Virus record (IMG/VR): IMGVR_UViG_3300009503_000039 | Span: 1-55,401 of that record | Source: a virus | Taxonomy: Duplodnaviria > Caudoviricetes | Strand: one strand, 5' to 3' | Length of the DNA stretch: 55,401 nucleotides | Shown here: positions 2,332 through 46,847 of the stretch, one piece after another | How positions within the stretch are numbered: position 1 is the stretch's first letter | Layout of the letters: the number at the start of each line of letters is the position of its first letter | The notes under the pieces: generated by a model | The model's database searches: none | Seen by the model: the letters and a program-made list of their open reading frames with translations, nothing else | Told to the model about the DNA's origin: nothing | Position numbers and translations under genes: made by a program

Positions 2332-2648
2332 GTAGTAAAAAATTTTATTTTGATTATTTTGATGATTGTATTGATAAAAAAAATAAAATAGATTTGAAAA
2401 AAGCTAGAGAAAAGGTATTTGATGAATATAAATATCAACTACTTTCTAATAGTATTTTTAATAAAACTTCATTTAGTGAATTTTTAGACTCTATGATGAA
2501 GATGGTTCAAAGTATTAAATTAGTTGTTGATGAGTTGTATTTTAAAGCAGAATTATCAGATACAGAATATTCAAAGCATGTAATGAAACTTGAAAAAGGG
2601 ATAGAAATATTGAATCATTTAATTTGTCAAGAAAGAATGTTGAATTAA
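2328..2648 (+). CDS. Hypothetical protein
   Basis: 106 aa, coupled to its neighbours. Confidence 0.6.
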   Translation: MSSKKFYFDYFDDCIDKKNKIDLKKAREKVFDEYKYQLLSNSIFNKTSFSEFLDSMMKMVQSIKLVVDELYFKAELSDTEYSKHVMKLEKGIEILNHLICQERMLN

Positions 2649-5647
2649 TATTTTTTACTAAGGATGATTTAATGATAATTACCCAAGAGATGTTAAATTT
2701 TCTTAGGAAAAAATATCCGGATTATATACTGCTAGATTTTAGCAGTATTTTTGTCGGTGAACATATACAGATTAATGATGCAGTTGAACCATCTACACAT
2801 AAATTAGTCAATGAGGAAGGAGTATTAAAAATAATTGCTAATGGTGAGGAATTCGCTAGTCTCGATTTGAAAAAATATATACCCCAAAAAATAGGAGATA
2901 AATATAAAAATATTGAATATAAAGCTATTATTAGAAGTGAGAAATATTCCCCATTATTTTTAGATGCTAAAGGTAGGATTTCAGAAAAAGGAAATTATAT
3001 ATATTCTAAACCTTCAGAAATAATAAATGCAAATGTTTGGAAAGATAAAAATCCGTTACAGGAACTATTAGGTATGGTTGCAGATAGTGGAAAAAAAGTT
3101 ATAATAATAGCAAATGATTATGTAAGACTATGTCCAGACAGAATTTCTATTCCTTTTAAACAAATACAACAAGAAATGAAAATGAGTAAAGAATCGTTTT
3201 TAATTTTTGCCGATCTTGAATCCCGTATGAAATCAATGATTCAGCAATATACCGCTCGAATTCCTAGCAGTACTCCCGAAGAGGCAGATATTGAGGCAAG
3301 AGCAAGAGAAAAGTTACGAGAAAAACAAAGAAAAAAAGAATCATTTTTAAGACAAGCAAGTTTAGATTTACATAATATAGTAAAAAGATATCATAGATTT
3401 TCAGACTGTTTTGAGAAATTAGCGGAAATTATTGGGGCGGAAGCTTTGAATTCTATAGCTATTGTTAATTCATGTGATTTTGAACAGCTCAAAGATTATT
3501 GTTTTCCAATTTTTATAGTTGATGATAAATATTGGCCTTTCGGAGTTTATAGTGCAAAATATAATGCTAATCCCGACTTTATTCTTTTTAAAGCATCAGA
3601 TTTTACAGAGGAGAAAAAAATAATACCTGGAATTCTTCATGAACTTTCGCATATGAAATATGAGAATAAATTTGGTAGAAAAGTTATAGAAGAAGAATGC
3701 AGAAAATATGATTATATTAAGAGGCCGCATGAACGGATTGCCTATCAGGTACAGATTTCTGAAATGATAAAGCAAGAATCCGGTAATATAGATGCTGTGA
3801 AGGAAAGATGGTATAAGGCATTTTTTCCGGATGAGACAATGATTAAAGAAATGTATATTTTAACAGAAGATGTTGTAAAGAAAGCCAGAAAGTCTTGGGA
3901 ATTGTATAAAGAATGTATAAGGGCAAAATTAAAGCAAGGCAGTAATGAGATAGGCGCTGAAAGAGCATGTAGGCACTTAAAACCTGAATTTGATGATAAG
4001 ATAGCAGAAGTAATGTTTAAGTGCGGATTCTTAAGTTTAGGGGATATGGAACAAATTAAGGAATTGTATCGTTCTCAATTAACTGGGCACGTAGATGAAG
4101 ATTTAGCTAAGTCAGTAAAATATATAATAATTGATTATGCTGAAAGATTAATAAAGGATAAAGAAGAAATGGCTGCATCTGAACCAAAAGAGATTCAGGA
4201 AGAATATAAACATATTAATAGATTTAAGTTCCTTGATAAATTTTGGAATGATTTCAAAAATAAATTATTGAAATTAAAGTTTGCTAAAAGCCCAGAAGAA
4301 ATATTATTAAGAGTAGATGAATTGATAAGTACCGCGCATAATACTGGACAAATATTAGATTGGGAGATTATAGAGGCAGAATCAAAAGGAAAACCTGTAA
4401 AATATTTAAAAAAATTAGAAGATTCTATTGCGGATATTTATGAATTAGCAGAGCAATTAAAGAATGCTAATTTTAATTCTTTTAATATTGTAAAACAAAG
4501 TGAGGTAAAATTTAGGGATGATTGGAAATCTGTGTATTCAGAATATGATGTTGTAGGACGTTCGTATTGGTCAAAAAAAGATCTTATAGAATTGATTAAG
4601 AAATATTTGATTTCCGCTGATGGGGATGCTTATAAAACTTCAGAATTAAAAGATTTATCCACTATTCAACTAAGAAAGATGTTTTTTAAATACGCTCCTC
4701 AGGAATTTGGGAAACTACCCCATGAGATACAAAATAGAATAGCAATTAAAGAATTAATTAAGAATAAAAAATATGCTGTAAAAATAAAAGAAAAAACTTT
4801 AGGTATTTACGATAATCTTAATTTTGCAGAAAAAGCTAAACAATTTTGGATGAAACAATTTACAGAAGATGACAAATTAAATGCTTTACCGGTTTCGGAA
4901 TATTCAGTAAGAGCCAAAGTGTCTAAAATATTACCTACAGGATTTATGATGGATGTAGATGGTAAGTTGTTTTATGTTGATAAAAATGTATCTTTAGATG
5001 TAAAATATTTATTGGATAAAACTGGGTTGTATAGTATGTTTAAAACATCTCAGTATCTGGATAATTTGGTAGATGTTTTGGAAGCGATTGATGATAAAGT
5101 GGTTAAAATAAATTCAATTAGGGAGTTTGATAGAGTTCTGGGAACTGAGTTTGAAAGATTATTATTAGAAATACAAAAAATAGATAAGTATAGTGCAAAT
5201 TACCAATATGATTTTTATAAGATGACACAAACTCAGTTAGAAGAATTTATAAAAGAAACTCAGAAGAAATTGAATAGAGTTTATGATTGGAAGATTAAGC
5301 AAGAACTGGAACGAAATTTAGATAAAGCAATGCAAGTTTATAAAAGTAAATATATAAAAGAGTATGCTCAAGTTAAAATTGCAGCAGATATTGAAACATC
5401 TTTATCAGATTTAAGAGATTTATTGGCTCAAGGATATGATACAGTTGAATGGATTCAAAGTTTATATCCTTGTAATAAATGTCGAGAACTTAATGGTGAA
5501 ATTTTTGATTTAGCAGATTTTATTAAAGAAACTAAATATAATGCTCCTCTTTTCACAAAATCACATCCAGGATGTAGATGTAAGGTAAAAGTTATGGGCA
5601 ATGGTTTAAAGGATGTTTTTGTAAATTATAATGGAATAATTTTATAG
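2624..5647 (+). CDS. Multidomain head-associated protein: HEXXH zincin-like domain plus C-terminal MuF/SPP1 gp7-like domain (likely start ATG 2672)
   Basis: ILHELSH...PHERIAY; C-terminal VEW..CNKCRELNGEIF...P...SHPGCRC. Confidence 0.65.
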   Translation: MSRKNVELIFFTKDDLMIITQEMLNFLRKKYPDYILLDFSSIFVGEHIQINDAVEPSTHKLVNEEGVLKIIANGEEFASLDLKKYIPQKIGDKYKNIEYKAIIRSEKYSPLFLDAKGRISEKGNYIYSKPSEIINANVWKDKNPLQELLGMVADSGKKVIIIANDYVRLCPDRISIPFKQIQQEMKMSKESFLIFADLESRMKSMIQQYTARIPSSTPEEADIEARAREKLREKQRKKESFLRQASLDLHNIVKRYHRFSDCFEKLAEIIGAEALNSIAIVNSCDFEQLKDYCFPIFIVDDKYWPFGVYSAKYNANPDFILFKASDFTEEKKIIPGILHELSHMKYENKFGRKVIEEECRKYDYIKRPHERIAYQVQISEMIKQESGNIDAVKERWYKAFFPDETMIKEMYILTEDVVKKARKSWELYKECIRAKLKQGSNEIGAERACRHLKPEFDDKIAEVMFKCGFLSLGDMEQIKELYRSQLTGHVDEDLAKSVKYIIIDYAERLIKDKEEMAASEPKEIQEEYKHINRFKFLDKFWNDFKNKLLKLKFAKSPEEILLRVDELISTAHNTGQILDWEIIEAESKGKPVKYLKKLEDSIADIYELAEQLKNANFNSFNIVKQSEVKFRDDWKSVYSEYDVVGRSYWSKKDLIELIKKYLISADGDAYKTSELKDLSTIQLRKMFFKYAPQEFGKLPHEIQNRIAIKELIKNKKYAVKIKEKTLGIYDNLNFAEKAKQFWMKQFTEDDKLNALPVSEYSVRAKVSKILPTGFMMDVDGKLFYVDKNVSLDVKYLLDKTGLYSMFKTSQYLDNLVDVLEAIDDKVVKINSIREFDRVLGTEFERLLLEIQKIDKYSANYQYDFYKMTQTQLEEFIKETQKKLNRVYDWKIKQELERNLDKAMQVYKSKYIKEYAQVKIAADIETSLSDLRDLLAQGYDTVEWIQSLYPCNKCRELNGEIFDLADFIKETKYNAPLFTKSHPGCRCKVKVMGNGLKDVFVNYNGIIL

Positions 5648-5655
5648 GAGGGTTT

Positions 5656-5940
5656 ATGAAACCAGAAGTATTAAGAACTATTATATCGGTTTTGGAACCA
5701 TTTCGTTTGTATGGTAAAATTTTGGTGCCTGATGAGAATGAAAAAGAAATGATGATTAAGCTTTCTGAATTAGTTAAACAGGCATTTAGTCCGGTTGAAT
5801 ATGATGAAATTGCTCAATATGAAAGATTAATAGATAGTAAGCAATTTACAGAAATTTATAAATTAAGTTATGTTTTGTTAGAAGAAGAGATTCCTACTGA
5901 TGATATTCCAAAACGTTGGGTAAATAGAACAAATGTATAA
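5656..5940 (+). CDS. Hypothetical protein
   Basis: AGGAGG RBS, 94 aa. Confidence 0.7.
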   Translation: MKPEVLRTIISVLEPFRLYGKILVPDENEKEMMIKLSELVKQAFSPVEYDEIAQYERLIDSKQFTEIYKLSYVLLEEEIPTDDIPKRWVNRTNV

Positions 5941-6000
5941 TATAATAAAATAATATATAGTATAACATTATTTGTAGGCGGTAACCATTAAGTTCTTACC

Positions 6001-6030
6001 AAAAGGCGGCTTAGTTTTAGCCGCCTTTTT
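6001..6030 (+). terminator. Intrinsic terminator, possibly bidirectional
   Basis: AAAAGGCGGCT-loop-AGCCGCCTTTTT. Confidence 0.85.
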
Positions 6031-6079
6031 GTTTGTAATATGTTAATTGTTTATATTTTGAAGGATTTAAAAAAGTGTT

Positions 6080-6157
6080 CAAAAATCACTTTTTTGTAAA
6101 ATAATAGCTTTTTTGTGATATAATATATATGTCTCAAAAATAATGATAAAAAGGAGA
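6080..6157 (+). promoter_or_regulatory. Repeated promoter/RBS cassette, copy 1
   Basis: 6080-6130 is identical to 10730-10780; contains extended -10 TGaTATAAT (6116-6124); followed by AAGGAG RBS. Confidence 0.75.
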
Positions 6158-6163
6158 TATAAG

Positions 6164-6400
6164 ATGAGATTTGAAGAATTTAAGAATACTTTTATAAAAG
6201 AAGGAAGATTAACCGGAACATCAACATTAAAACCAGATGGAAAAGAACCAATAAAAATTAGGGGTTATTTTAGAAACGCAATTATTGATTATCCTCATCC
6301 AGGAGTTCATAAATGGGTTGTTAATTATGGCAGATTAACTAAAAAATATAAATCTTTTGAGGAAGCATTAAAAGGTGTTTATGAGGATATTAAGAAATAG
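6164..6400 (+). CDS. Small hypothetical accessory protein (start moved to ATG 6164)
   Basis: AAGGAG at 6151-6156 precedes the second Met of track ORF 6143..6400. Confidence 0.7.
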   Translation: MRFEEFKNTFIKEGRLTGTSTLKPDGKEPIKIRGYFRNAIIDYPHPGVHKWVVNYGRLTKKYKSFEEALKGVYEDIKK

Positions 6401-6469
6401 GAGGAGTAAAATGATGGAACTGAATAGTTAATTTTTATGCTAAAAAGGTATATAAATAATTAAATTGAT

Positions 6470-6676
6470 ATGTTAAAAAATAAGATAAGAAAGATGAATA
6501 AAACAATAGAGAACTGGAGTTGGCATATTGTGAAGGAGATTAAGAGGATGAGGTTTAATTTTAAAGAAGGGTTTAAAGAGTGTATAAGGAAAGGATTTTA
6601 TCCCGAAGGAGAGAATATAAAAGAGTTACGGGAAACGGTAAAAAAGAAATTTAATCACTACTTTTTTAAAAAATAA
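6470..6676 (+). CDS. Small basic hypothetical protein
   Basis: 68-aa ORF within the accessory cluster. Confidence 0.55.
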   Translation: MLKNKIRKMNKTIENWSWHIVKEIKRMRFNFKEGFKECIRKGFYPEGENIKELRETVKKKFNHYFFKK

Positions 6677-6687
6677 AAAAGGAGACG

Positions 6688-7014
6688 ATGAAAGTGAAAT
6701 TATTAGTTTGTGCTTTTTCAGTTTCTATGATTAGAAGAGATGGAAAAGTAATGATCGAAGAAGTATCTGAAAAGGAATTCCTCAATCTTCTAGGAAATGA
6801 TTTTGTATCTGCTGTGGGGCACGAAATTACTGCTCGGATACTATCTATGCGATGGAAAAAGGAAATTCCTTTTTCCCGTAGAAATGTATCTACACAAGAA
6901 GGAGAAATTTTTGTCGCTGTTCCCCAAATTAGATTTGAGGAGGCAAGAGAGTTTAGCGAAAAAGAAGTATTAGATGCTTCTTTTCGCTTTTTTATTGTTA
7001 AGGAGGTAAAATAA
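6688..7014 (+). CDS. acrIII-1: DUF1874 (STIV B116 / SIRV1 gp29)-like protein, putative AcrIII-1 cA4 ring nuclease
   Basis: 108 aa with family motifs in order: AFSVSM, SAVGHEITA (catalytic GH), SRRNV, RFEEA, F.FF.V; AAGGAG RBS. Confidence 0.8.
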   Translation: MKVKLLVCAFSVSMIRRDGKVMIEEVSEKEFLNLLGNDFVSAVGHEITARILSMRWKKEIPFSRRNVSTQEGEIFVAVPQIRFEEAREFSEKEVLDASFRFFIVKEVK

Positions 7015-7055
7015 TAGTTCCGGCGTTAAAAGATTTATTACAGAATGGGAGGAAG

Positions 7056-7253
7056 TTGGTTATTCCTGAAATTAGAGTTTGGTGTCATCCTTACAGAATT
7101 GGAAAAAGTGGAGATGATTATTATGAGACTTTTAATAGTTTTTTAGAAGCGATGAAGTTTATCTCTGAACATAAAGAAGCAGAGAATGTGCCGCTTATTG
7201 CTTTTAGAGGATATGAATTAAATTTCTGGAAAATGAAAGAAGAAGATGACTAA
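7056..7253 (+). CDS. Small hypothetical protein
   Basis: GGGAGG RBS before a TTG start. Confidence 0.6.
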   Translation: MVIPEIRVWCHPYRIGKSGDDYYETFNSFLEAMKFISEHKEAENVPLIAFRGYELNFWKMKEEDD

Positions 7254-7285
7254 AGAATAAAGTAAAAATAAGATTTGAGGTAGAT

Positions 7286-7465
7286 ATGTTAATAGTTATT
7301 TTTCTTATTGGTATAGTTTTCGGCGTATTAATAGGTGTTATGTTAGGATATTTATTTTTTGATACTTTAACTTGTTTATTTGGAGAGAAAAGACGAAATA
7401 ATGCGAAAGTTTATGATTTAGTAGGATATAATTATCCAATTAAATTTTTGAAAAAGTTAAAATAG
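7286..7465 (+). CDS. Small membrane protein (59 aa, below the track cutoff)
   Basis: GAGG RBS; MLIVIFLIGIVFGVLIGVMLGYLFF... Confidence 0.6.
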   Translation: MLIVIFLIGIVFGVLIGVMLGYLFFDTLTCLFGEKRRNNAKVYDLVGYNYPIKFLKKLK

Positions 7466-7512
7466 ATTTATTATTTTAGTGGTGATTATAATTTAGTATA
7501 TGTCTTGTTATT

Positions 7513-8070
7513 ATGAATACGATTGTCAGATTTTTTGAAAAAGTTATTAAAATAATTACATATATTCCAATTCTTTGGAAAGATGAAGATTGGTCTTGGG
7601 AGTATATAATTAATATTCTAAACTTTAAATTAAAGAGAGTAGCTAGGTGTTTGAGAAGTAGTTTTGTAGAGGAAGAATACAAACAAGCTGATGTTATAGA
7701 TCATATAGTTGAACTTTTGAACAGAGTAACGAATGAAAATTTTTATTGTTGTCAGGAATTTAGAAATCATGAGAGAAAATGGGGGAAATTTAAGTATAAT
7801 TTTTTCAGTGAAAAAACTGGTGAGAAATGGACAATGGAGGATGAGAAAAGATGGGAAATATTAGAGAATAATGGAAAATGTGAAAAAGAAAGAATACATT
7901 CAGAGTTATTGTTAAAAGGTTATTATACTAAAGCAAGGAATGCTAATGAAGAGAAACAAGCTTGGAATGAGTATTTTAATATTTTGAAAAAACAAGAAAG
8001 ATTATTACAAAGAGATCTTGATGAAGCATTTAAATTAATTAGTAAGAATATAAGACGGTGGTGGAATTAA
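7513..8070 (+). CDS. Hypothetical phage protein
   Basis: 185 aa; W.D.DW..Y..L.FKL start and ..RRWW end, a pattern I recall from phage hypotheticals. Confidence 0.7.
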   Translation: MNTIVRFFEKVIKIITYIPILWKDEDWSWEYIINILNFKLKRVARCLRSSFVEEEYKQADVIDHIVELLNRVTNENFYCCQEFRNHERKWGKFKYNFFSEKTGEKWTMEDEKRWEILENNGKCEKERIHSELLLKGYYTKARNANEEKQAWNEYFNILKKQERLLQRDLDEAFKLISKNIRRWWN

Positions 8071-8142
8071 AAATTTGATAGGAGAAAAGATATAAATGAG
8101 GAGTAAAGGAATAACAAAGGGGCGAATTATACAGTTGTAAAA

Positions 8143-8340
8143 ATGGAACAAACATGGGTTGCTACTGATGCTGCAGATGTTATTTCTGGGGAACGTGTTC
8201 AGCAAAAAAGTTTATTTATAAATGGAAAACCAAAAAAACGGGAAACAAGTAAATGGATCATTAAAGATAACAAATGGACTAAAGTTAAGGAATTGCCAAA
8301 TGACAAAAAATCTTTATTTAAGAATGAAGAGAAAAAATGA
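8143..8340 (+). CDS. Small hypothetical protein
   Basis: 65-aa ORF. Confidence 0.5.
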   Translation: MEQTWVATDAADVISGERVQQKSLFINGKPKKRETSKWIIKDNKWTKVKELPNDKKSLFKNEEKK

Positions 8341-8342
8341 GA

Positions 8343-8450
8343 ATGAATTGCGTTAAACACTATGCAAAGAATGTGGTGTAAATTTGCCCAAAGATTGAGT
8401 GTGTTTGTAAATATTTATAAATTATCGAAACAGAATTTTATCATGATATG
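8343..8450 (+). mobile_element. Possible highly degenerate IS200/IS605-type relic
   Basis: First 29 bp identical to 15672-15700, which precede the TnpB relic; downstream reads CKECGVNLPKD/SVFVNI across a 1-nt frameshift. Confidence 0.4.
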
Positions 8451-8750
8451 AAGGAGTATATAATGATTTATGCTATAGAAGTAGTAAATTGGAAAGATGT
8501 TATATTTTGGGAAGGTGAAGTTTTAAGAAAAGAAAAATTTGTACTTCCTAGACAATTAAGTGTGGGTTTTAATTATTATGAGGATAGTGATAAATTGGTA
8601 TTAGTAAGTCTATTTGATTTAGATCCAGGTATGAAGAAAGAGTCGAATGATTTTATTGTAATACCTAAAACTCTAATTGAAGATAGGGTTACTGTAGGAT
8701 ATTATGATTCAAATACCGGTCGAATTAGCGAAAAAAAGAAGATGAAATGA
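8448..8750 (+). CDS. Hypothetical protein (likely start ATG 8463)
   Basis: AAGGAG before the second Met; beta-rich; V.W.D...SVG...IP motif. Confidence 0.65.
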   Translation: MKEYIMIYAIEVVNWKDVIFWEGEVLRKEKFVLPRQLSVGFNYYEDSDKLVLVSLFDLDPGMKKESNDFIVIPKTLIEDRVTVGYYDSNTGRISEKKKMK

Positions 8751-8871
8751 AAAATCAGAAAAAACTTCGGGAGGAACTAAAAAAGTTAGAGTTGTTTTGA
8801 AAGAAGGTAAGATAAATATTAGCAATTTTTATTTAATGAAGGCTTGAATTTTTTTTTAATGTAGAGGTATT

Positions 8872-10464
8872 ATGAAAAAAACTATAAGTGAAAATGCATT
8901 AAATAAATATTCAAATCTTTTAAAAACTGAGGAACTTATAAAGTTTAAGGTTAAACAAAGTATTGCAAATAATTTGGACAATATATTTGAGAGTACTTTT
9001 GATACTCGAAAATATTTAGAGAATAAATTTAATGTTAATTTGTATCTTAATCAAATTGAGGCATATGAAGCCATTGTTAATCCTTCTATTCCATATATTA
9101 TATTAGTTATGGCTCGAGGAGGCGGAAAAACTTTTTCAGTGAGTACAGGTTTATTAGGATTATGTGATACTTTTAGTGGAACTCCTGTTGGAATATTCGG
9201 GCCTAAACAACAGCAAGCTATGAAGATTATTGAAGAGATAGGATTGATAAGACTTAAGTCTGAATATGTTAATAGTATTATATCTCATTATTCTACAGAA
9301 AAAATTAAATTTAAAAATGGTTCTTTTATCCGTGCTTTTTCCGCAGCGGATCAAGCCGAGATTGAAGGATTTCATGGTGTTGTAGTGATGGAGGAAGCAA
9401 GTGTAATTTCGAATCATACAGTATCTAATCGTATTTTGCCAATGATTGCGTGGCCAGGATTTATCAAAGTTATAAAATTAGGTTTACCCAGAGGAAAAAA
9501 TCATTTTTATAAGAGTTTTTTAGATCCTAAATATGTGAAAATATTTAAAAAGTTTGATCAATGTCCATTGTTGAAACATAGCGGAGTCATTGTAGTTGAT
9601 GGAATAGAATACCCTAGAATTGTTGTAGATAGAATGCCTATAAGTTTAAAGAAAAAATTTTTTCCTGGTCATCCTGAACTTTGGTATGAAGGAGATATGA
9701 CAGAAGAGGATTTTTTGTCTGAATATATGCTTGAATGGTTAGAAAATATAGATAGAGAATTGAGTGAGGAACAAATTAAGAAATTATTTTCGGGGACTTA
9801 TATTCCCGAAGAAGTAGGAATTGCTGGGGTAGATTATTATTTTGGTTTAGATTTAGCTGGTAGTTCTGATGTAATTGGAAATAAAACAGATTTTACGTCT
9901 TTAACAGTTGGAAAAAAACTTGAGAATGGAGTTAAGCAGATAGTTTTTGAAAAAACCTGGAAAGGAGATACAGTAACACAAAAACAAGAGATAGATGCAA
10001 TTATAAATCCAAGAACAGGACTGTTTAAATGTAAATATGGTTGTGCAGATAGAGGATTTAATGCTGCTATGTTAGATGAGTTAAGAGCTTTAGGAAATAA
10101 TATTATAGGATTTGCTTTTAATCAGACTGATAAACTTACTGGAAAGAATTATAAGAATGTAATATTCGATCATTGGAAATGGGAGATTGATAATGACAGA
10201 TTACAATATCCTCATATTGATTTTGTAAACAAAAATCCTTATTTTAAAGAAGGAAAAATACAGTGGGAAAATATAGAAAGAGAAATTAGACCAAATACTG
10301 TTAATAGAAAGATATCAGCTCCAGATGAAGAAGGAATGCATGATGATGTAGCATGTAGTGATTGTTTGTTCGTATTTGCCGCTGATAAAATAAAACCACA
10401 AGATGTTCCAGCGGCAAGTAAGAAATTACCAAATCCTATAAAAGGACCCAAAGTTGTTAAATAA
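8872..10464 (+). CDS. terL: Terminase large subunit
   Basis: Walker A ARGGGKT, Walker B VVMEEAS, nuclease GLDLA and HDDVACS. Confidence 0.92.
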   Translation: MKKTISENALNKYSNLLKTEELIKFKVKQSIANNLDNIFESTFDTRKYLENKFNVNLYLNQIEAYEAIVNPSIPYIILVMARGGGKTFSVSTGLLGLCDTFSGTPVGIFGPKQQQAMKIIEEIGLIRLKSEYVNSIISHYSTEKIKFKNGSFIRAFSAADQAEIEGFHGVVVMEEASVISNHTVSNRILPMIAWPGFIKVIKLGLPRGKNHFYKSFLDPKYVKIFKKFDQCPLLKHSGVIVVDGIEYPRIVVDRMPISLKKKFFPGHPELWYEGDMTEEDFLSEYMLEWLENIDRELSEEQIKKLFSGTYIPEEVGIAGVDYYFGLDLAGSSDVIGNKTDFTSLTVGKKLENGVKQIVFEKTWKGDTVTQKQEIDAIINPRTGLFKCKYGCADRGFNAAMLDELRALGNNIIGFAFNQTDKLTGKNYKNVIFDHWKWEIDNDRLQYPHIDFVNKNPYFKEGKIQWENIEREIRPNTVNRKISAPDEEGMHDDVACSDCLFVFAADKIKPQDVPAASKKLPNPIKGPKVVK

Positions 10465-10470
10465 AGGAGG

Positions 10471-10683
10471 ATGTTTATGGAACAAATAATTTATCAACTT
10501 AATCGAATTTTAAAAGAATTGAATAATGTTATTTATTCTATTATGTTTAAAAATTATGATATAGATATTGATGAAGAAATAGAGACAGATAAATTAGTTC
10601 AAGCTGTGCAGTTAATTAAGGAACAGATAACTATAATACAAGAAAAAGAAGAATCTTTAGAAGAACAAGGAATTGAAGAATAG
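10471..10683 (+). CDS. Small acidic hypothetical protein
   Basis: AGGAGG RBS right after terL. Confidence 0.65.
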   Translation: MFMEQIIYQLNRILKELNNVIYSIMFKNYDIDIDEEIETDKLVQAVQLIKEQITIIQEKEESLEEQGIEE

Positions 10684-10729
10684 ATGTTATATCATATATT
10701 AGTAAAAGTGGATGTTTAAAAAAAACATC

Positions 10730-10807
10730 CAAAAATCACTTTTTTGTAAAATAATAGCTTTTTTGTGATATAATATATATATCTCAAAAATAATAATAAA
10801 AAGGGGA
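10730..10807 (+). promoter_or_regulatory. Repeated promoter/RBS cassette, copy 2
   Basis: Near-identical to 6080-6157; TGaTATAAT; AAGGGG RBS before ATG 10812. Confidence 0.75.
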
Positions 10808-10811
10808 ATAA

Positions 10812-11276
10812 ATGAAAATAACTCCAGAGATGAAGAAAATGGTAAAGGAAATTCATCCAATTTGTAAAATTTGTCGTAGAGAAAATTGTAATAAACATTC
10901 ACGACATTTTAGTATGCGTTGGTGTTCTTTAATGACTCCTAAAGTGATTTCTGAAGAAGAGTTCAAAAAGAGATTTGGAAAAAGAAATGAAATTACTGGA
11001 AAAATTGATTATGATGAAATAGCTATTAAGAATTTTTGGAAGCAGGAAGCGGAAAAAGTACCGGTAAAGTATCGTACTCGTAAAGTAAAAAAAGTTGAGA
11101 ATGTTAATTATGATTTTAAAGTCGGAGATGATGTAATATATAATGGGAAAAGAATTAAAGTAAAAGGACAAATTTGTAAAGTAGTAAAGTTAGTTCCTGG
11201 AACAGTGACACTTAAATCTAAATCAGGAGAGATATTTATTTGTTCCCCAAATAGTGTAGAAAAAACAACAGCATAG
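10812..11276 (+). CDS. Protein with N-terminal Cys/His cluster and C-terminal SH3/KOW-like barrel
   Basis: CKIC...C..H; FKVGDDVIYNGK...KGQICKVV...CSPNSVE. Confidence 0.7.
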   Translation: MKITPEMKKMVKEIHPICKICRRENCNKHSRHFSMRWCSLMTPKVISEEEFKKRFGKRNEITGKIDYDEIAIKNFWKQEAEKVPVKYRTRKVKKVENVNYDFKVGDDVIYNGKRIKVKGQICKVVKLVPGTVTLKSKSGEIFICSPNSVEKTTA

Positions 11277-11334
11277 TTAATTTTTACATAAAAAAAGCAT
11301 ATATATATATATTATAAGATTAGGAGGAAAAGAT

Positions 11335-11754
11335 ATGAATATAGAAATTGGTAAAATGTATACTTACGATAATGGTTATATGAAAGGTATTGTTAGAGTT
11401 CAGTGGATATTTGGAAATAAAGTTTCATTAGCTTTTTGTGATAAGTTATGTAAAGGTGGTTATATTGTTGTAGGGAGAGCTGAAGCAGAAAATCTATTAA
11501 AAGAGGAGGTGATTAAAATGAAAAGGATTGGTGAAAAGGAAGCGGGGGAAGTAACAGAGGTTGTTCCAACGGTTCCTAAAGATAAGGCTTCAACCGTAAA
11601 GACCTTTGCAGTAGGCGATAAAGCGATTTACAAGGGTAAGAATGATGCTCTCAAAGGTAAGCCTTGTGAGGTTATTCGAGTTCGTCCTGATGGAATTGAT
11701 GTCAAATTCAAGGACGGAAAAGTGTATGCTTGTTCAGCTAAAAGCTTAGAATAA
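11335..11754 (+). CDS. SH3/KOW-like domain protein; C-terminus paralogous to the preceding ORF
   Basis: FAVGDKAIYKGK...KGKPCEVI...CSAKSLE; strong internal RBS and in-frame ATG at 11518. Confidence 0.7.
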   Translation: MNIEIGKMYTYDNGYMKGIVRVQWIFGNKVSLAFCDKLCKGGYIVVGRAEAENLLKEEVIKMKRIGEKEAGEVTEVVPTVPKDKASTVKTFAVGDKAIYKGKNDALKGKPCEVIRVRPDGIDVKFKDGKVYACSAKSLE

Positions 11755-11782
11755 AACCAGACATTAAATATTTTCTATGCTT

Positions 11783-11821
11783 CTACACTAGCTCACTACT
11801 ATTAAAAGTGAGCTAGTGTAG
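11783..11821. repeat. Perfect 15-bp inverted repeat
   Basis: CTACACTAGCTCACT-9 nt-AGTGAGCTAGTGTAG, no U-tract. Confidence 0.85.
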
Positions 11822-11913
11822 TTATAAATAATTCGGTTGTAAACATTATAAGTGAGTAATAAAGAGATAGGGAAAAAGTAGATTATTTGATTCTTAAGGT
11901 TAGAGAGGACTAA

Positions 11914-12105
11914 ATGATTCGGGATATTATTATAGTAATTTTAGTTTGTTGGCTTCTTTTATGGGGCATTAAAATAAATAGATTAGAAATGAAGATGAAA
12001 GTTCAAGAAGCAATAATTGAATCTCAAAAAGAAGTGATTAAAACTCAAGAGAATATAATAAAAATTCAGGAATTGATTGATAGTTTAAAAGAGAATGGAA
12101 AATGA
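11914..12105 (+). CDS. Small protein with N-terminal TM helix and coiled coil
   Basis: GAGGA RBS; hydrophobic N-terminus; Q..II..Q heptads. Confidence 0.7.
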   Translation: MIRDIIIVILVCWLLLWGIKINRLEMKMKVQEAIIESQKEVIKTQENIIKIQELIDSLKENGK

Positions 12106-12185
12106 AAGTTGTAGGTATTGTATTTATTATTACAGTGTTAATTTTAGGGATTGTAAGTATTATTTTTAGTGAAAAAGTAAAATGA
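12102..12185 (+). CDS. 27-aa single-TM micropeptide
   Basis: ATGA overlap with the previous stop; MKVVGIVFIITVLILGIVSIIFSEKVK. Confidence 0.5.
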   Translation: MKVVGIVFIITVLILGIVSIIFSEKVK

Positions 12186-12223
12186 GTTAAGTAATTATTG
12201 TAGTAGATAACTGGGATAAATAG

Positions 12224-12262
12224 AAGCTAACTTTATGAAACTATGTAAAGTTAGCTTTTTTT
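12224..12262 (+). terminator. Intrinsic terminator
   Basis: AAGCTAACTTTA-loop-TAAAGTTAGCTT followed by a T-run. Confidence 0.8.
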
Positions 12263-12350: not shown

Positions 12351-13919
12351 ATGCCAAAAGAAATAAAAAAGATTGATATGCCAAAGCCAGTTGGTATTTC
12401 GAAGACTTCATACTCAACATTTAACTATTTAAAAATTGCGAGTATGGATAAGACTTCAGCTTTAGATAATACAATTGATGTTACAACAGCAACTCCTTCA
12501 TGGTATCATCCCGCCCTCACACCTCCAAACTGGTTGTTACCTCGTTCTTTAATTGAAGTTCAGAACTGGGCAAATATTTTTTATAATAATGAACCATTAG
12601 TACAATCTATTATCAATCTTTATAGCGAATACCCGTTGAGTAAATTTGACTTAGTGGTAGAAGACGATAAGATAAAACGTGAATATGAAGATATGATGTT
12701 TAATGCAGATTTTGATTTGTATAGTTTTATAAAGCAAATGAGTTTACAATACTGGAAATTAGGAGAAGCAATTTGTTATGGTTCTTATAATGTTAATGAT
12801 AAACGATGGGATAGATTTATTTTGTTGGAGAATTCTTCCGTAGAGGTTAAAATAAATAAAATAAATGGCAAATTAAGATTTTTCTTATTACCAACAGATG
12901 CTCTAAAAAGTTTAATTCGTTCTACAGATGAACAAGATATAGAATATGTAAATTCTTTGAATCCTGAATTTGTAGAAGCGATAAGACAAAATAAACCCGT
13001 TGAATTACCTCCAGAATGTACTTCAATTATAGCCAGAATAGTAAGACCGGGAGATACTAGAGGAACACCCATTTGTGCCGCTATTTTTAAGATCTTAATG
13101 CTTCAAGATAGATTAAAAGTAGCTCAGATGGCAATTGCTGATCGACATATTACACCTATTCAATTATGGAAAATAGGATCGGTGGCTCAGGGATATATTC
13201 CTACAGATAAAGATTTAGAGAATTTTAGAGAAATGTTGAATCAAGCTTCTTTAGATCCAAGTTTTTCAATTATATTTCATGATGCAGTGCAGTTTGAAGC
13301 AGTGGGAATAAAAGATAAGATAATTCCTTTACAACCCGAATTTGAATATATAGATGAGAAAATAATGCAGTGTTTTGGGGTAAATAAAGCTATAATTACA
13401 GGAGAAGGTCCAGCTTTTACAAGTCCTCAACTTATTGGACTGCAGATATTTGTAAACAGATGTTTAGCTTGGAGAGATGAAATAGAAAATTGGATAAGAA
13501 ATCATTTTTGTAGACGTGTAGCTATAGATAGAGGATATAAAGATACAAGATAGGATCCACCAAGATTAATTTTACCTCAGATAGCGTGGTATAAAGATCC
13601 ATTGCTTGAAGATTTCCGGGAAAAAGAACAATTCTATAAATTATGGAAAGATGGAGCAATTTCAACAAAAACATTATTTAGTAAATATAAAACGTTAGAC
13701 TGGGACACGGAAAAAAGAAATCTCGAAGAAGAGAAGGGAACAATTTTTGATTCACATGATAGATTACCTAAAGCATTTTCAACAGGAGTTCCAGGAAAAG
13801 TTTCACCTCCTGTAGGTGAAGAAACATTTGTAAAAGAAACACCTACAGAAGAGATGACTGTAAAACCAATAGAAGAAACAGAAACTGCTCCAGAAGGAGC
13901 TTCTGAAGCTTCAGAATGA
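12351..13919 (+). CDS. Portal protein (522 codons) with one in-frame TAG at 13551-13553
   Basis: Portal-type segments (FYNNEPLV, YWKLGEA, RGTP, GVNKAIITGEG); the frame continues past TAG as DPPRLILPQIAWYK and joins track ORF 13602..13919. Confidence 0.85.
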
Positions 13920-15112: not shown

Positions 15113-15685
15113 ATGGAAAATTTATCTAAAGAAAAAATTACAGAAGCTAATTCAGAAAAATCAATAGAGGAAGTTAAAAGAGAGATTAAATGTCCTCAAT
15201 GTGGGGAATATTTTTATGGAAATAAATGTCCAAAATGTGGATGGGAGACTGTACAGGAGAGAGAAACAGTTGGAGGTTTAAATAAAAGTTTTTTTACTAA
15301 AGTATTATCTGTTCAGGAGATATCAGAATTAACAAAGCAAGGTAGTGTAGAGGATTGGATTACTGCACTTCTTGATAATCCTTATTTAAAAAATATTATT
15401 ACATTTTTAGCAGCTTTTACATTTTCTCCTGCGGTAAAAAAAGTAATAGATTCTATAACTGATCTTTTAAAAGAGTTAGATAAAAAAAAGAAGAAAAAAT
15501 CTTCTTTAGTTTTAGAAAGTGTTCAATCACCCGAAAGTGTAGCAGAAATTATAGCAACAATAAAATACGGGAAGAAAAAAGATAGAGTGGATAGTCCAAT
15601 TAAAAGTGACATATTATTAAAAGATTTATATGAAGAAGAAGACAAAAGTAAAACTAAAAAAGAAGTTGAAGATGAATTGCGTTAA
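15113..15685 (+). CDS. Zn-ribbon-containing hypothetical protein
   Basis: CPQCG...CPKCG; the stop codon lies inside the 29-bp repeat. Confidence 0.65.
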   Translation: MENLSKEKITEANSEKSIEEVKREIKCPQCGEYFYGNKCPKCGWETVQERETVGGLNKSFFTKVLSVQEISELTKQGSVEDWITALLDNPYLKNIITFLAAFTFSPAVKKVIDSITDLLKELDKKKKKKSSLVLESVQSPESVAEIIATIKYGKKKDRVDSPIKSDILLKDLYEEEDKSKTKKEVEDELR

Positions 15686-15936
15686 ACACTATGCAAAGAA
15701 CGTTGAAAATTTAGTTTTGGGTTAGCCAATACAGCCATTTTCGTATAGTTGATCCGGCATATACAAGCCAAACTTGCAGTAAATGCGGGTTTGTCCATAA
15801 GTTATCCAGGAATGGTAGGGTATTTACGTGCAGGCATTGTGGCTGCACTTTGGATGCGGATTTTAACGCATCTGTGAATATCCTGAATCTTGTGATAGTC
15901 CGGGAGACAGAATTGGTTAACGCCAGTTCGATATGA
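15672..15936 (+). pseudogene. tnpB: TnpB (IS200/IS605/IS607 OrfB) C-terminal remnant
   Basis: Start-less frame 15715-15936 reads [14 protein letters not shown]...[20 protein letters not shown] (Zn ribbon plus RuvC-III); locally higher GC. Confidence 0.85.
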
Positions 15937-16022
15937 GTCCTGGAAGTACAGAATCCAACTCATTTAGTATCAAACAAGCTGTAACAAAACTTGATATTGA
16001 ATACCACGAAGAAGGAGTGAAA

Positions 16023-16566: not shown

Positions 16567-19026
16567 ATGCGACAAAATTTTGTGAGTAATATTTTAAATC
16601 TTGTTGGTGAAAAATTAGGAGTTATTAAAACTGCAGAGTTAAAGCAAAAACAAGGGATTAAAGAATTAATAGAAGAAGTATTTTTTAAGAAAGCTGATAG
16701 AGATGTACGTTTTGATACAACGGGTCGGGTTGAGGTATGGGTTACAAGTAATGAAATAAAAGAACATAAAGACTATAAGAAGATAGTCGATTCAGATAAA
16801 TCAGATGAAGAAAAAATTAAAGAGCTGAAAGAATTAGCTGTAGATATTGCTTATGATAAAGTACAATCTGTTAGTAAGAATGGAGTTGATATTACTGTTG
16901 AATTAATTGAACAAGATATTAATATTGATAGAATAGATTGGGATAGTTTAGTAAAAAAAGAAGATAAAGAGATGACAGAACAATCTAGTATTAAGTTTTT
17001 GTTTAAAAAGAAAACTAATATAGCTTTGAGTGATTTTTGTAAAAAAGCTGAGTTTGATGTTGATAAATGGAAATCAGAACATCCTGGAATTAATCCAAAT
17101 ATGAATGACGTACTTGGGACAAATTATGAATTTTTAAATAGTGCATTTTTAGAATTACAATTTTTGCCAAAAGGAGTTGCTGTAATAAATGTTGAACCTT
17201 ATGATGAGAATTTTAAAGAGGACTGGTATAGAAAAATAATTAAATTTTTAAAAGATAATGAACAAGTGATATTGTCTAGTCTTCCAGGAGTTGATTATGT
17301 AGAAATTAATGCATTTGGATATACTAAAGTAGGTGAAGTAGACTTTTATTCTAACAATGTTAAAACCGCTGGTTGGGTTCCGGTAAAATCGATTTATCAG
17401 CTTGAATTGGGAGCTCATGTTAAAAAAGATGGTTTAGCTGGATGGGTTGAGGATATACAAGAAGATGGCAAAGTAAGAATTCATTTTGTGGATCCTGAAC
17501 ATGTAGAAATTCTGGATCCTACGACATTATGGGTATTTCAAGGTAAAGTAGCTTTTATTTATACTTGGTGTGGAACATTAGTTAAAAATTTACCGGAAAG
17601 TTTACGTAATAAATTACCTCAATTAAAAGAAACAACTGGGGAAGAAAAATTTGAGGTTGAGCTTCAGAGAGATCGATCTTACAAAATAACTTTAAATGGA
17701 AAAGAATTAGATTTTGTAAAAAAAGAAGATCCGGCCTGGGAGGATTTAAATAATTGGGTATTGATGAAGAATATGAAGATTCGAGATGAAATTTTTTCTG
17801 ATGAATTATGGAGTAAAGTAGCTTACTATATTGATAAAAATTTAATTCACGGAATGCAATCTGTTACAAGAGTATATGAAGGATTTCTTGTACCAGCAGC
17901 TCAATATGTGTTAACAAAAATTATAAATGAAGATAAACCTCAGATATTATGTAATGGTAAATTTGACAAACAAGCTGATTTAGTAGACATTCCAGTTGAT
18001 GTAGATAAAATTTGCCCTGTAGTAAATCATGTTCTGGCGATATATTCTGATAGTATTATAACAGGTAATGAACATTATGGAGATTTTATTGTTAGTTGTT
18101 TTGCTCCTACAAGAAAAGAAGCTTCTACCTGGATATCTAATTTTGAGAGAAGATTAGTTAAAGAAAATCAATATATAGGGAAATCTTTGTATATAGAAAA
18201 TGGGAAAATAAACTTTTGTAATATTCCCAAAGTTATATGGGATGATATTGTATTAGATGATAAAGTAAAGAATGATATAAGAATAAATACAGTATCATTT
18301 TTAAGTGATGAAAGATTAAAGAATACTGGTGTAATGAAAAGAGGATTAATTATTTATGGTCCTCCAGGAACTGGTAAAACTTCAATAATAAAAGCAATAT
18401 TCAATGAGTTAGATGATCGAAATATAAGTAGAATATATGTGACTGCTGAATCTTTTTCAAAAATGTCTGTAAAAAATTTATTTGATTTTATTCCTTATCT
18501 TGGTAAAGTAGTTTTAGCTTTTGAAGATGTAGATATGATCGGTCGTTCTAGAGAAACTCCATTTTCTAATAATTTACTTGGAGATTTGTTGACAAATTTA
18601 GATGGTATGAGAGCTTATGATGAACAAATTGTTGTAATAGCTTCAACGAACAAAATCGAAATGCTAGACAATGCTTTAGCAAATAGACCATGTAGATTTG
18701 ATAGACGTATTGAAATAAAGCTTCCGTCTGAAAAAGACTTAAGAAATCTGTATGAGAAATTTAGTGGAATAAATCTTCCAGAAGAAGTTATAAAAATATC
18801 TGCCGGTTTTACCGGAGCTCATGTTGTAGAAGCAGTAAATACCGCAAAAATACTATCAGCTTATAACAATAAGCCTTTGTATGAATGTATGATAGATGCT
18901 TGCAATATAATACGAAACAATTTCTTTCCTATGCAAACACAAGCCGAAATAAGAAAAGCGGCTTTAGAATCATTGAGAAAAATCGGTCTTAAGATAGAAG
19001 AAGAAGTAGAAAAAGAAATGGAATAA
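16567..19026 (+). CDS. Multidomain protein with C-terminal AAA+ ATPase
   Basis: Walker A GPPGTGKT, Walker B LAFEDVD, SRH ASTN..LDNALANRPCRFDR, GFTGAH. Confidence 0.9.
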   Translation: MRQNFVSNILNLVGEKLGVIKTAELKQKQGIKELIEEVFFKKADRDVRFDTTGRVEVWVTSNEIKEHKDYKKIVDSDKSDEEKIKELKELAVDIAYDKVQSVSKNGVDITVELIEQDINIDRIDWDSLVKKEDKEMTEQSSIKFLFKKKTNIALSDFCKKAEFDVDKWKSEHPGINPNMNDVLGTNYEFLNSAFLELQFLPKGVAVINVEPYDENFKEDWYRKIIKFLKDNEQVILSSLPGVDYVEINAFGYTKVGEVDFYSNNVKTAGWVPVKSIYQLELGAHVKKDGLAGWVEDIQEDGKVRIHFVDPEHVEILDPTTLWVFQGKVAFIYTWCGTLVKNLPESLRNKLPQLKETTGEEKFEVELQRDRSYKITLNGKELDFVKKEDPAWEDLNNWVLMKNMKIRDEIFSDELWSKVAYYIDKNLIHGMQSVTRVYEGFLVPAAQYVLTKIINEDKPQILCNGKFDKQADLVDIPVDVDKICPVVNHVLAIYSDSIITGNEHYGDFIVSCFAPTRKEASTWISNFERRLVKENQYIGKSLYIENGKINFCNIPKVIWDDIVLDDKVKNDIRINTVSFLSDERLKNTGVMKRGLIIYGPPGTGKTSIIKAIFNELDDRNISRIYVTAESFSKMSVKNLFDFIPYLGKVVLAFEDVDMIGRSRETPFSNNLLGDLLTNLDGMRAYDEQIVVIASTNKIEMLDNALANRPCRFDRRIEIKLPSEKDLRNLYEKFSGINLPEEVIKISAGFTGAHVVEAVNTAKILSAYNNKPLYECMIDACNIIRNNFFPMQTQAEIRKAALESLRKIGLKIEEEVEKEME

Positions 19027-21503: not shown

Positions 21504-21890
21504 AAAATATTCAGTTGATAGAAAAAGTTATAGTGGAAAAAGAGGTATAGTTTGGCTATAGGTATGATATTTTTTTAATATAAAAAATATCATACTGAAA
21601 AAAGTGATATAATTTTAGAATTGGCATAGAAAACGCTTGAATGATAAAAGAGTCATAGTGAAAAAATGACATAGCTTTAGAATCAAGATGAAAAAACATT
21701 CAGTTAATAAAAGTAGATATACTGAATTTTGAATAGGATATTTAGTTATCAGTATGATATTTTTTTAATATAAAAAATATCATACCAAAAAATGATATGT
21801 CCTCATGATCGACATAAAGAATTTTCGACTGATAAAAAAAGTTACAGTGAAAAATTAGCATAGTTATTGTCATTTGTATGATATTTTCTT
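21500..21890. repeat. Non-coding degenerate tandem array (~62-63-bp period) with two identical 34-bp palindromes
   Basis: GTATGATATTTTTT-TAATAT-AAAAAATATCATAC at 21562-21595 and 21752-21785; half-site at 21876; recurring GATA.AAAA.GT.A.AGTG.AAAA. Confidence 0.8.
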
Positions 21891-25400: not shown

Positions 25401-25941
25401 ACCTGAGCCTCAATCTATGGAAAAAGCAAAAGGCTCAGATTTACAGGGTGTTGATTATATAGAACCAGAGGGTGGAACAAAAATACAAAGTTCTATTGAA
25501 TCAGACGAATCAAAGAGATTAAAAGAAGAAAATGAGATGTTAAAAAATCAATTAGCTGCGGAACAGGCTAAAAGAGTTTTAGAAAATAAAGTTGCTCGTT
25601 GTAAAGACATTGCTACAAAGATGGCATATAAAGGATTGATAGTTCCTGATGATGCTGAAGTAAAAGATATCCTATTAAAAAGAGCAACGGAAAAAATCAG
25701 TGTTATTGATGCAAATAAAGAATCTTTCAAAAACCAGATTGAGAGACAAATATCAGATTTGATGGCTATGGACGATCATACTTTAGATGCATTTGAAAAA
25801 ACAATCGATAGAATACCTGATAAAAAGACACAAAAGATAGCTATTCTTCAAGATGGAGCAAAACAGCGGCCAGAAGATAATGAATTTTATATTCCGTTTA
25901 CAGTGAATAAGGAAGCATTGAAAAGGTTTGGAGGTAAATAA
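22447..25941 (+). CDS. Prohead maturation protease fused to a scaffold region, intein-containing
   Basis: PNGNRDIF, LNHN, IGKIIDA, SAVSMGC, ELSIVDAPADPTA; long acidic coiled-coil C-terminus; located before the capsid genes. Confidence 0.88.
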   Translation: MFIKYGTLEIIDSSGDLEEIVDINGIGHIVEEKKGPWLYCRARALTCDKPNGNRDIFPKDEVKKAYQSFIGRGVYLNHNSGKVENAIGKIIDAYFVDTDPNDVHVECLFKINKEMFPDICKRIQNGLMSAVSMGCIIQRSECVLPTTNVYTLDGWKQIKDIRVGEQVLTHTGKFRRVLATSRRSAPEKLIRIRYKIANDDKHIGTLILTDNHPVLTERGWIKAIDLESTDKISIMAKNGYEFKFVDLVGIEVLDNIHPNRDRVSGASAFTVVCNLQVEKDESYIAEGVVVHNCQICGNIARNPSEYCEHLARYRGQKFNVKRDENGKYIEAVLDPNGQEEANEISHDITYTELSIVDAPADPTAEIKTIWASIDEKFRKMAMLLTDEINKKIDSKFDELVKTMSSNNSLDSKEVKNMVEAKKKDEPDIGVQVTPEAKEKPTFKTDDKDIPADISVQVTPEAKEKPKVEKTDEDVIGVQEETKTAEAKDVDLDLGRGVGGSGRRGNPKTDEERAETHGVSVEDLPPRGTGLGKGKGIKDEDKESKTVEEKESETEVNEILKDVRKKIEKVFEEALKKTKSMVIYKIFKSAVRSNILELNEELEENEVEEIVNKVEETAVAEATEDAMQELNVKIAADVEEEKPKIDVRLDIKRDNLEDEYIVSEDGKDVMSSTVKDVFGKSAIQNIAYAISPEYLQLLKTAAQEYGKDAILAIWAASEDSDALSKAKKYFTKAYPDKKYVIEWIKKHKEKVQKPSNVKLEMTKVADVTSSNVEGQTLPLEQSEVSSEPVEEFTTQQIEEFENVTHNLIEGLSDEELDIATDFIAEELSTETKRYKPEGLVKLASVCPSCFKNMLEAAKEAARKGRTMSEAAKKGLWKKFKGSKKKCIESMEGKVSNPAAYCRWLEGEVTGEYGPTRTKPGKKKVCEQEGEIKEAASNEKGTSYVKAERPGEFLPDVDLSKETKRVLSGDKGELKGNKFVEPEGGSKPEPQSMEKAKGSDLQGVDYIEPEGGTKIQSSIESDESKRLKEENEMLKNQLAAEQAKRVLENKVARCKDIATKMAYKGLIVPDDAEVKDILLKRATEKISVIDANKESFKNQIERQISDLMAMDDHTLDAFEKTIDRIPDKKTQKIAILQDGAKQRPEDNEFYIPFTVNKEALKRFGGK
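22870..23322 (+). mobile_element. Mini-intein (151 aa, no endonuclease domain)
   Basis: Block A CVLPTTNV, block B LTDNHPVL, blocks F/G VCNLQVEKDESYIAEGVVVHN followed by +1 Cys. Confidence 0.93.
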
Positions 25942-26566: not shown

Positions 26567-26638
26567 CGAGAAAATAGTAATTAGTAATAAAAAGATCTAA
26601 AATATGATCGAAAAATAATTGTTCTTTGAAAGAAAAAC

Positions 26639-28443: not shown

Positions 28444-28593
28444 ATTCAGCATTCTGATTGTTTCATTGGTTTAAAAGCTAGAACATAAGAGGGAGAGTGG
28501 CCAGAGGACACTCTCCCAATACGTGTAATCCAACGTTAAGGTTAATGCAGATAAGAAGAATGTCTGCAAGTAAACCTTAAATCGGAGGTTTAA

Positions 28594-46392: not shown

Positions 46393-46393
46393 A

Positions 46394-46831: not shown

Positions 46832-46847
46832 AAAACAGGAGTTTAAA

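Follow-up and report, generated by a model that had tools for sequence, protein, structure and literature searches.

A DUF1874 (AcrIII-1/Crn2) family gene in a tailed-phage genome fragment, and the apparent sister clade to which its lid motif points

The closest described relatives of the gene studied here are ring nucleases of the AcrIII-1 and Crn2 type. For the AcrIII-1 protein of the archaeal rudivirus SIRV1 (gp29, also called ORF114), the available portion of bioRxiv 10.1101/778746 names H47 as the general acid, whose replacement in the H47A variant lowers activity more than 2500-fold, and R85 as the residue that locks the closed dimer. The same portion lists R85, R66, N8, Q81, S11, T50, S49 and N13 as the side chains in contact with cyclic tetra-adenylate (cA4), terms them 'semi or fully conserved', and reports that the Bacillus subtilis protein YddF cleaves cA4. 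According to an excerpt of a review (PMC8284326), the Marinitoga fusion protein Csx1-Crn2 degrades cA4 constitutively, and type III immunity requires transcription and takes effect in the middle to late part of infection. AcrIII-1 is given as the commonest ring nuclease of phages, at 36 of 28,114 genomes, in the accessible part of 10.1101/2024.09.24.614671. SIRV2 gp37, closely homologous to AcrIII-1, is described in extracts of 10.1101/2023.01.10.523387 as the product of a middle/late gene, as lacking an anti-CRISPR effect during native infection and as an inhibitor of a host lysine methyltransferase. The same extracts count two of 24 crenarchaeal viral ring-nuclease genes under an early anti-defence promoter.

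We analysed a window of 55,401 nucleotides, which is the whole of the IMG/VR virus record IMGVR_UViG_3300009503_000039. The record is linear, with 29.8% G+C, a CheckV completeness of about 37% and no terminal repeat, and all its long ORFs lie on one strand. The following genes could be named:

2624 to 5647: Mu-F-like head protein, below the Pfam cut-off
8872 to 10464: large terminase
12351 to 13553: portal
16567 to 19026: AAA ATPase
22447 to 25941: protease-like protein with a HINT domain
around 26600 to 28450: major head protein, in pieces
29502 to 29984: holin
37377 to 39026: tail sheath
46355 to 48257: baseplate proteins

Both the terminase (33% identity) and the sheath (27%) are closest to those of the 497-kb Bacillus phage G, and the large terminase used as query found no close relative in IMG/VR. 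The record seems to represent a poorly sampled lineage of large myoviruses. Its holin matches 193 phage records, and since the organisms listed for these matches belong to genera of Firmicutes (Streptococcus 95, Clostridium 15, Paenibacillus 13, Bacillus 12, and others), a Firmicute host is a reasonable guess and no more. An IVYWREL fraction of 0.411 translates into a rough estimate of 50 C, a weak hint of thermophily; the temperature formula is reportedly that of Zeldovich 2007.

Within this record, the gene of interest and its ribosome-binding site are:

6688 to 7014, + strand: DUF1874/AcrIII-1-family gene, from ATG to TAA (7012 to 7014), encoding 108 amino acids
6680 to 6684, + strand: Shine-Dalgarno-like AGGAG, 3 nt 5' of the ATG at 6688

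A GTG at 6694 is an alternative start and would lengthen the spacer to AGGAG to 9 nt. A sequence-only reading had proposed that this ORF encodes an AcrIII-1-like protein of the DUF1874 family, from its length and the order of a few motifs, and had named an HMM search and a structural alignment to SIRV1 gp29 among the ways to check it. The ORF is as described, an exact frame from ATG to TAA, and the motif residues are present in the protein: A9-F10-S11-V12-S13-M14, S41-A-V-G44-H45-E-I-T48, S63-R64 and R82-F83-E84-E85-A86. The motif written as S.GH..T is there in substance, with two spacer residues between S and GH instead of one. The family assignment itself was confirmed by the Pfam family, by a family profile and by the predicted fold. 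In the Pfam search, the protein matches PF08960 (STIV_B116-like, the former DUF1874) at E 3.8e-9 and 37 bits, above the gathering cut-off of 26, with residues 8 to 99 aligned to positions 5 to 99 of the 101 of the profile. PF08960 stands alone, as no second Pfam family matches at E<=1, and a six-frame Pfam search of the whole record recovers it at 36.3 bits, again above the cut-off. A PHROGs search gave phrog_5063, a family of unknown function, at 7.8e-12, and no NCBIfam model matched this protein or the three relatives that were tried.

Solved structures of the family can be reached from the single sequence. A phmmer search of the PDB gives SIRV1 ORF114 (2x4i) at 1.5e-4 and STIV B116 (2j85) at 1.8e-4, followed by weaker matches to AFV3-109 (0.012) and to chains of Marinitoga Csx1-Crn2 (0.035 and 0.077); the four remaining rows (E>0.8) were dismissed as noise. 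With a profile of 70 family sequences (alignment A1, which also served for AlphaFold2), the matches become strong: 2j6b at 4e-26, 2x4i at 1e-25, 6scf at 3e-23, 2j85 at 4e-22 and 8y7f at 8e-13. The immediate kin of this protein are few. A HMMER search of 1.84 billion cluster representatives gave 205 proteins at E<=1e-3, of which 21 reach E<=1e-10. A word-indexed search gave no more than two close relatives, 64% and 61% identical to the protein, whose contigs measure 553 and 750 bp. Ten relatives looked up by cluster lie on contigs no longer than 3 kb. A search of viral contigs with the 108-residue protein as query gave no relative. An alignment of five sequences (A3) leads to one Microgenomates MAG contig of 1.6 kb among genome contigs and to three IMG/VR contigs, at 38% identity. 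By sequence and fold, the ORF at 6688-7014 is thus a genuine member of the DUF1874 (PF08960, AcrIII-1/Crn2) family. Enzymes of the AcrIII-1 type are already known as a kind, and in this respect the phage gene is an ordinary further member.

The fold was modelled with AlphaFold2 at high confidence (pLDDT 93.5, pTM 0.86). The least confident block of the model, residues 81-90 with a pLDDT of 76, fits a mobile lid loop. All of the top 17 rows of a Foldseek search are family entries (6scf, 2x4i, 2j85, 2j6b and Csx1-Crn2, with TM 0.62-0.77); they hold each of the 16 matches at E<=0.001, and unrelated chains appear from E 0.6 on. For 6scf, 2x4i, 2j85, 2j6b and 8y7f the Foldseek probability is 1.00 and the TM score 0.71-0.77. 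Structural alignments with VIA-align agree, with a Z of 14.1 for 2j85, 13.8 for 6scf (SIRV1 gp29), 13.3 for 8y7f and for 2x4i (also gp29) and 11.8 for 2j6b, against 2.7 for the top unrelated chain.

The prediction of a homodimer reached an ipSAE of 0.73, against 0.00 for the best of three controls, and so passed a mark that, in our calibration, 20 of 30 proteins solved as pairs and one of 23 solved as single chains attain. Contacts agreed between runs at 96% or more, and the partner pLDDT was at least 87. The predicted interface comprises residues 9-13, 15, 17-25, 76, 78, 80, 100, 102 and 107. The model thus supports a symmetric dimer that pairs via strand 17-25 and the 9-13 motif, and since solved dimers of the DUF1874 family exist, this pass may reflect mere likeness to them.

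The residues with known roles in gp29 can be placed by the phmmer alignment, and three of them are encoded as follows:

6820 to 6822, + strand: codon of His45, equivalent to the catalytic His47 of SIRV1 gp29
6877 to 6879, + strand: codon of Arg64, equivalent to the cA4-contacting Arg66 of gp29
6931 to 6933, + strand: codon of Arg82, equivalent to the lid-loop Arg85 of gp29 and first residue of an R-x3-A-R-E-F motif (residues 82-89)

The histidine of the GH motif, which the earlier reading had singled out, is hence retained at the catalytic position. The A1 profile concurs: 6scf is the H47A variant, and the H column of the profile lands on the mutated residue. In the phmmer alignment, S11 of gp29 is S11 here and T50 is T48. 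N8, Q81, S49 and N13 are replaced by C8, V78, I47 and S13, and four of the eight cA4 contacts are therefore kept and four replaced. An A1-profile alignment of 152 family sequences gave the following conservation:

H45: 150 of 152
T48: 149 of 152
R64: 149 of 152
R82: 149 of 152
E93: 143 of 152
M14: 138 of 152
S11: 122 of 152

By analogy with SIRV1 gp29, the gene product would be a homodimeric, metal-independent ring nuclease whose two subunits pair via central beta-strands and so form a cleft that binds cA4. S11, T48 and R64 would grip the ring, the loop starting at R82 would shut over it, and H45 would protonate the leaving group, cutting cA4 into linear A2>P halves. A phage carrying such an enzyme could drain the cA4 made by a type III CRISPR complex of its host, and effectors such as Csx1, Can and the like would stay off. 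We regard the degradation of cA4, blunting type III CRISPR signalling, as the probable function. On this analogy cA4 would be the ligand, would be turned over, and its turnover would benefit the phage during infection. The setting is in keeping with a viral AcrIII-1 rather than with a CRISPR-linked Crn2, as the gene sits in a virus record with no Cas domain in any of the 53 ORFs scanned; nor does the window hold a CRISPR-like array. If the enzyme is active, this large uncultured phage would meet type III CRISPR immunity that signals by cA4, which narrows the search for its host, and a phage-G-like myovirus would join the short list of tailed phages with AcrIII-1.

With gp29 the phage protein shares the Pfam family, the fold, a viral origin, a similar length (108 against 114 residues), the catalytic histidine with the equivalents of S11, T50, R66 and R85, and the predicted symmetric dimer via central strands. 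Yet the two are only about 21-23% identical in structural alignments, the lid reads RFEEAREF in the phage protein and RLEEGKIL in gp29, the residues at N8, N13, S49 and Q81 of gp29 are C, S, I and V, and the carrier is a bacterial tailed phage instead of an archaeal rudivirus. STIV B116 (2j85) is the top structural match, with an rmsd of 2.4 over 106 residues, and AFV3-109 (2j6b) is the best match of the A1 profile, but both are proteins of archaeal viruses with a lid like that of gp29. The Crn2 domain of Marinitoga Csx1-Crn2 (8y7f, 8y7g, 8y6z) has the same fold (Z 13.3 and 12.9). It is however cellular, CRISPR-linked and fused to a CARF-HEPN RNase, with the lid RPEEGKIY, whereas the phage protein stands alone. 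The YddF family of ICEBs1-type conjugative elements in Bacillus provides another DUF1874 member on a mobile element. A protein of a B. velezensis plasmid annotated as YddF family, which stands in here for B. subtilis YddF, has the GH..T and NR motifs and an ICEBs1-like gene order, but its lid RFPEWKVLT is nearer to that of gp29, with W for G, and BLASTP gives no alignment between it and the window's protein at E<=100.

These differences in the lid reflect a wider division. The sequence-only reading had taken the SR in place of the family's NR, and the RFEEA in place of RLxEG, as deviations that might alter activity. This does not stand, as both are typical of part of the family: at the NR position 108 of 152 sequences have N and 17 have S, and at the G of RLxEG alanine is commoner (82 of 152) than glycine (44 of 152). 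Two lid types can be defined. Of the 152 cluster representatives sampled, 96 carry the AREF type, P-x-x-R-x3-[AST]-R-E-[FY], 44 carry the EG type, L-x-x-R-x-x-E-G-[KRQ]-[VI]-L, and 12 carry neither; these proportions are biased towards AREF, because the sample consists of the best matches to the window's protein. In a FastTree phylogeny of 151 of the 152 sequences (one with more than 35% gaps was left out), one clade gathers 44 EG, one AREF and three other sequences with a support of 0.99, and another gathers 92 AREF and eight other sequences, with no EG, at a support of 0.86. From these sequences, SR and RFEEA appear as marks of a large sister clade, not as peculiarities of one gene, and so they say nothing specific about lost activity.

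All four solved family proteins carry the EG-type lid motif in the profile alignments, and the same type is found in the translated homologues of Aquificae Conch Spring virus, phage THSA-485A and plasmid pMU3262; no AREF-type member occurs among the four solved proteins or the four named homologues that were translated. A search of 50,697 records of isolated phages gave one match for the window's protein, 21 for P0033 and six for P0014. All matches score 51 bits or less and come from archaeal viruses, phage THSA-485A, Hydrogenobaculum phage 1 or Aquificae Conch Spring virus, and the two that were translated (THSA-485A and Aquificae Conch Spring virus) are both of EG type. A literature search that was not aimed at the motif itself found no AREF-type member. 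Pfam scores differ as well: among 23 long family forms, the 15 of AREF type score 22-44 bits, and seven of the eight of EG type score 72-101, the eighth 45. None of these 23 forms has a CARF or HEPN domain, and a search among longer proteins for a fused relative, which is weak evidence, found none. Among the members examined, the window's protein therefore lies on a branch without a structure or assay tied to it.

One might thus ask whether proteins of the AREF clade keep the fold and the chemistry but act on another ligand, such as cA3, cA6 or a CBASS-type signal, or serve as a sponge that sequesters the signal. Four of the gp29 contacts with cA4 differ, as seen above, and the clade has polar residues of its own. 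In the 13 closest sequences, P79, Q80, R87, E88 and R100 are invariant beyond the family-wide residues, and two of these positions, 80 and 100, fall within the predicted dimer interface, beside the S11 motif. The lack of clade members among the solved structures and the four translated named homologues leaves room for this idea. But both clades retain, almost without exception, the catalytic histidine and the pair of arginines gripping cA4, the lid loop is of equal length in both (the phmmer alignment has no gap from R82 to E93), and a pure sponge would have no need of the histidine. We consider a different ligand rather unlikely, and keep cA4 degradation as the preferred reading. There is a similarly small chance that the AREF clade as a whole forms a branch of the ring-nuclease fold with a function of its own, with another specificity for cyclic oligonucleotides or with a role tied to late expression, the latter idea stemming from the apparent co-transcription of our gene with the large terminase gene and from its unusually structured mRNA. 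A single biochemical test of any AREF member would tell whether the cA4 annotation carries over to the whole branch.

The transcriptional context bears on when the protein would be made. Around the gene we found:

6001 to 6029, + strand: terminator-like hairpin with an 11-bp stem (6 G-C pairs) followed by a T run, closing the upstream unit
6059 to 6157, + strand: 99-nt promoter/leader-like element, copy 1 (repeat D3), heading the cluster of small genes that includes the DUF1874 gene
6164 to 8750, + strand: eight small co-oriented ORFs, between the 99-nt element and the large terminase gene
10709 to 10807, + strand: 99-nt element, copy 2, 89% identical to copy 1, 3' of the terminase gene and heading the next cluster

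The 99-nt element holds two tandem 19-mers, matched four times in the window where chance predicts 0.33, and a TGnTATAAT box lies at 6116-6124 within copy 1. A generic sigma-70 scan of 5400-9000 is not above chance (25 sites against 20.2 +/- 3.7 expected). As a conserved leader containing a Shine-Dalgarno site closes the element, the ATG at 6164 is the likely start of the first ORF, and the DUF1874 gene is then the third ORF of the apparent unit. The spacer behind the first gene of each unit is duplicated too (6418-6458 and 11267-11307, 78% identical, repeat D11), and the first genes themselves are barely similar (BLASTP E 0.019 over 15 residues). Element and spacer together look like a regulatory cassette that was reused. 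The hairpin at 6001-6029 is the only + strand terminator-like site in 5400-9000; the next is at 12222-12259, with none in 6030-12221. Hence, the unit of the DUF1874 gene appears to continue into the large terminase gene. For the other seven small ORFs, no match to a Pfam or PHROG family reaches E<=0.001, none up to E<=1 is credible, and their look-alikes in the atlas are viral hypothetical proteins only.

This arrangement suggests that the DUF1874 gene may be a middle or late gene, because it is apparently co-transcribed with the terminase gene, with no + strand terminator-like site between the two. Timing matters here in view of SIRV2 gp37 and of the small count of early promoters among crenarchaeal viral ring-nuclease genes, both as given in the extracts of 10.1101/2023.01.10.523387. 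A DUF1874 protein, active or inactive, might then benefit the phage otherwise than by early anti-CRISPR action, through late binding of a host protein or a late tidying up of cA4. The position of the gene between the Mu-F-like head protein and the large terminase, the lack of a predicted terminator ahead of the latter, the same 99-nt element at the head of the next cluster in the structural region, and the two archaeal precedents all point this way. But the methyltransferase partner is, in the same extracts, confined to Crenarchaeota, and the TGnTATAAT box is of the host sigma-70/sigma-A type, which would also allow early transcription. Type III immunity itself, according to the review excerpt given above, operates in middle to late infection. 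In three IMG/VR contigs, moreover, the 38%-identical homologue is flanked by helicase or sigma-like genes and a primase gene, which indicates that the DUF1874 family moves between genome modules. Hence we hold a role of this kind to be quite unlikely, and an enzyme that degrades cA4 to be the better account of the gene.

The gene also differs from its neighbours in composition and in the folding of its RNA. Its first 300 nt fold at -81.5 kcal/mol (z -3.47), and none of 200 shuffles folds as well; in 37 spaced control windows z averages -0.39, with a standard deviation of 1.38 and a minimum of -3.39. Among 552 windows of 300 nt, that at 6701-7000 ranks 10 by free energy and 5 after G+C correction, and the higher ranks belong only to a group I intron region and to 15701-16000. 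The G+C content of the gene is 34.3%, against 22.8-31.3% in eight neighbouring genes, which suggests a foreign origin. Together with the scarcity of close relatives (two, at 61-64% identity), this might make one suspect a decaying or non-functional passenger gene. Yet the frame is intact and has a ribosome-binding site, every clade-invariant residue is kept, and the structure model is confident, all of which makes such decay very improbable. A working ring nuclease that acts on cA4 thus stays our favoured interpretation.

Several observations concern other parts of the window. Nowhere in the window is the predicted RNA fold more stable than at 15701-16000 (-96.1 kcal/mol), a region matching no Rfam family. 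At 15751-15900 it encodes a C-terminal TNB/zinc-ribbon domain of 50 residues, from a TnpB/Cas12f-like protein (PF07282, 1.1e-16, 61 bits), and there is no full-length TnpB ORF around it. The region is probably a TnpB remnant plus a guide-RNA region. A 48-nt direct repeat (D8) has copies at 8327-8374 and 15656-15703 that are 83% identical. Each copy falls at the 3' end of an ORF, the two ORFs being unrelated, and one copy immediately precedes the TnpB fragment; the repeat may mark where a transposable element ends.

The 1164-residue protein encoded at 22447-25941 has a prohead-protease-like N-terminus (phrog_18299, 1.2e-10; phrog_2774, 3.4e-21) and, at residues 149-232, a HINT domain (PF07591) at 22.5 bits, below the cut-off of 27.7. 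It may contain an intein or be a polyprotein processed by HINT. Two copies of an A/T-rich palindrome of 52 nt (D7; 21551-21602 and 21741-21792, 88% identical, 190 nt apart) lie in an intergenic region, and the window enclosing them folds with a z of -3.39.

Fragments of the major head protein at 27017-27265 and 27666-28010 match positions 74-153 and 162-266 of the 318 of phrog_2522. Group I introns (RF00028) part the fragments of the head gene, with matches above the gathering score at 26721-26933 (73.9 bits) and 27952-28187 (85.3 bits). A weaker third match to RF00028 lies at 27248-27574 (34.2 bits, E 4e-7), and the first and the third are 88% identical over 182 nt (repeat D1). A capsid gene with three group I introns would be unusual.
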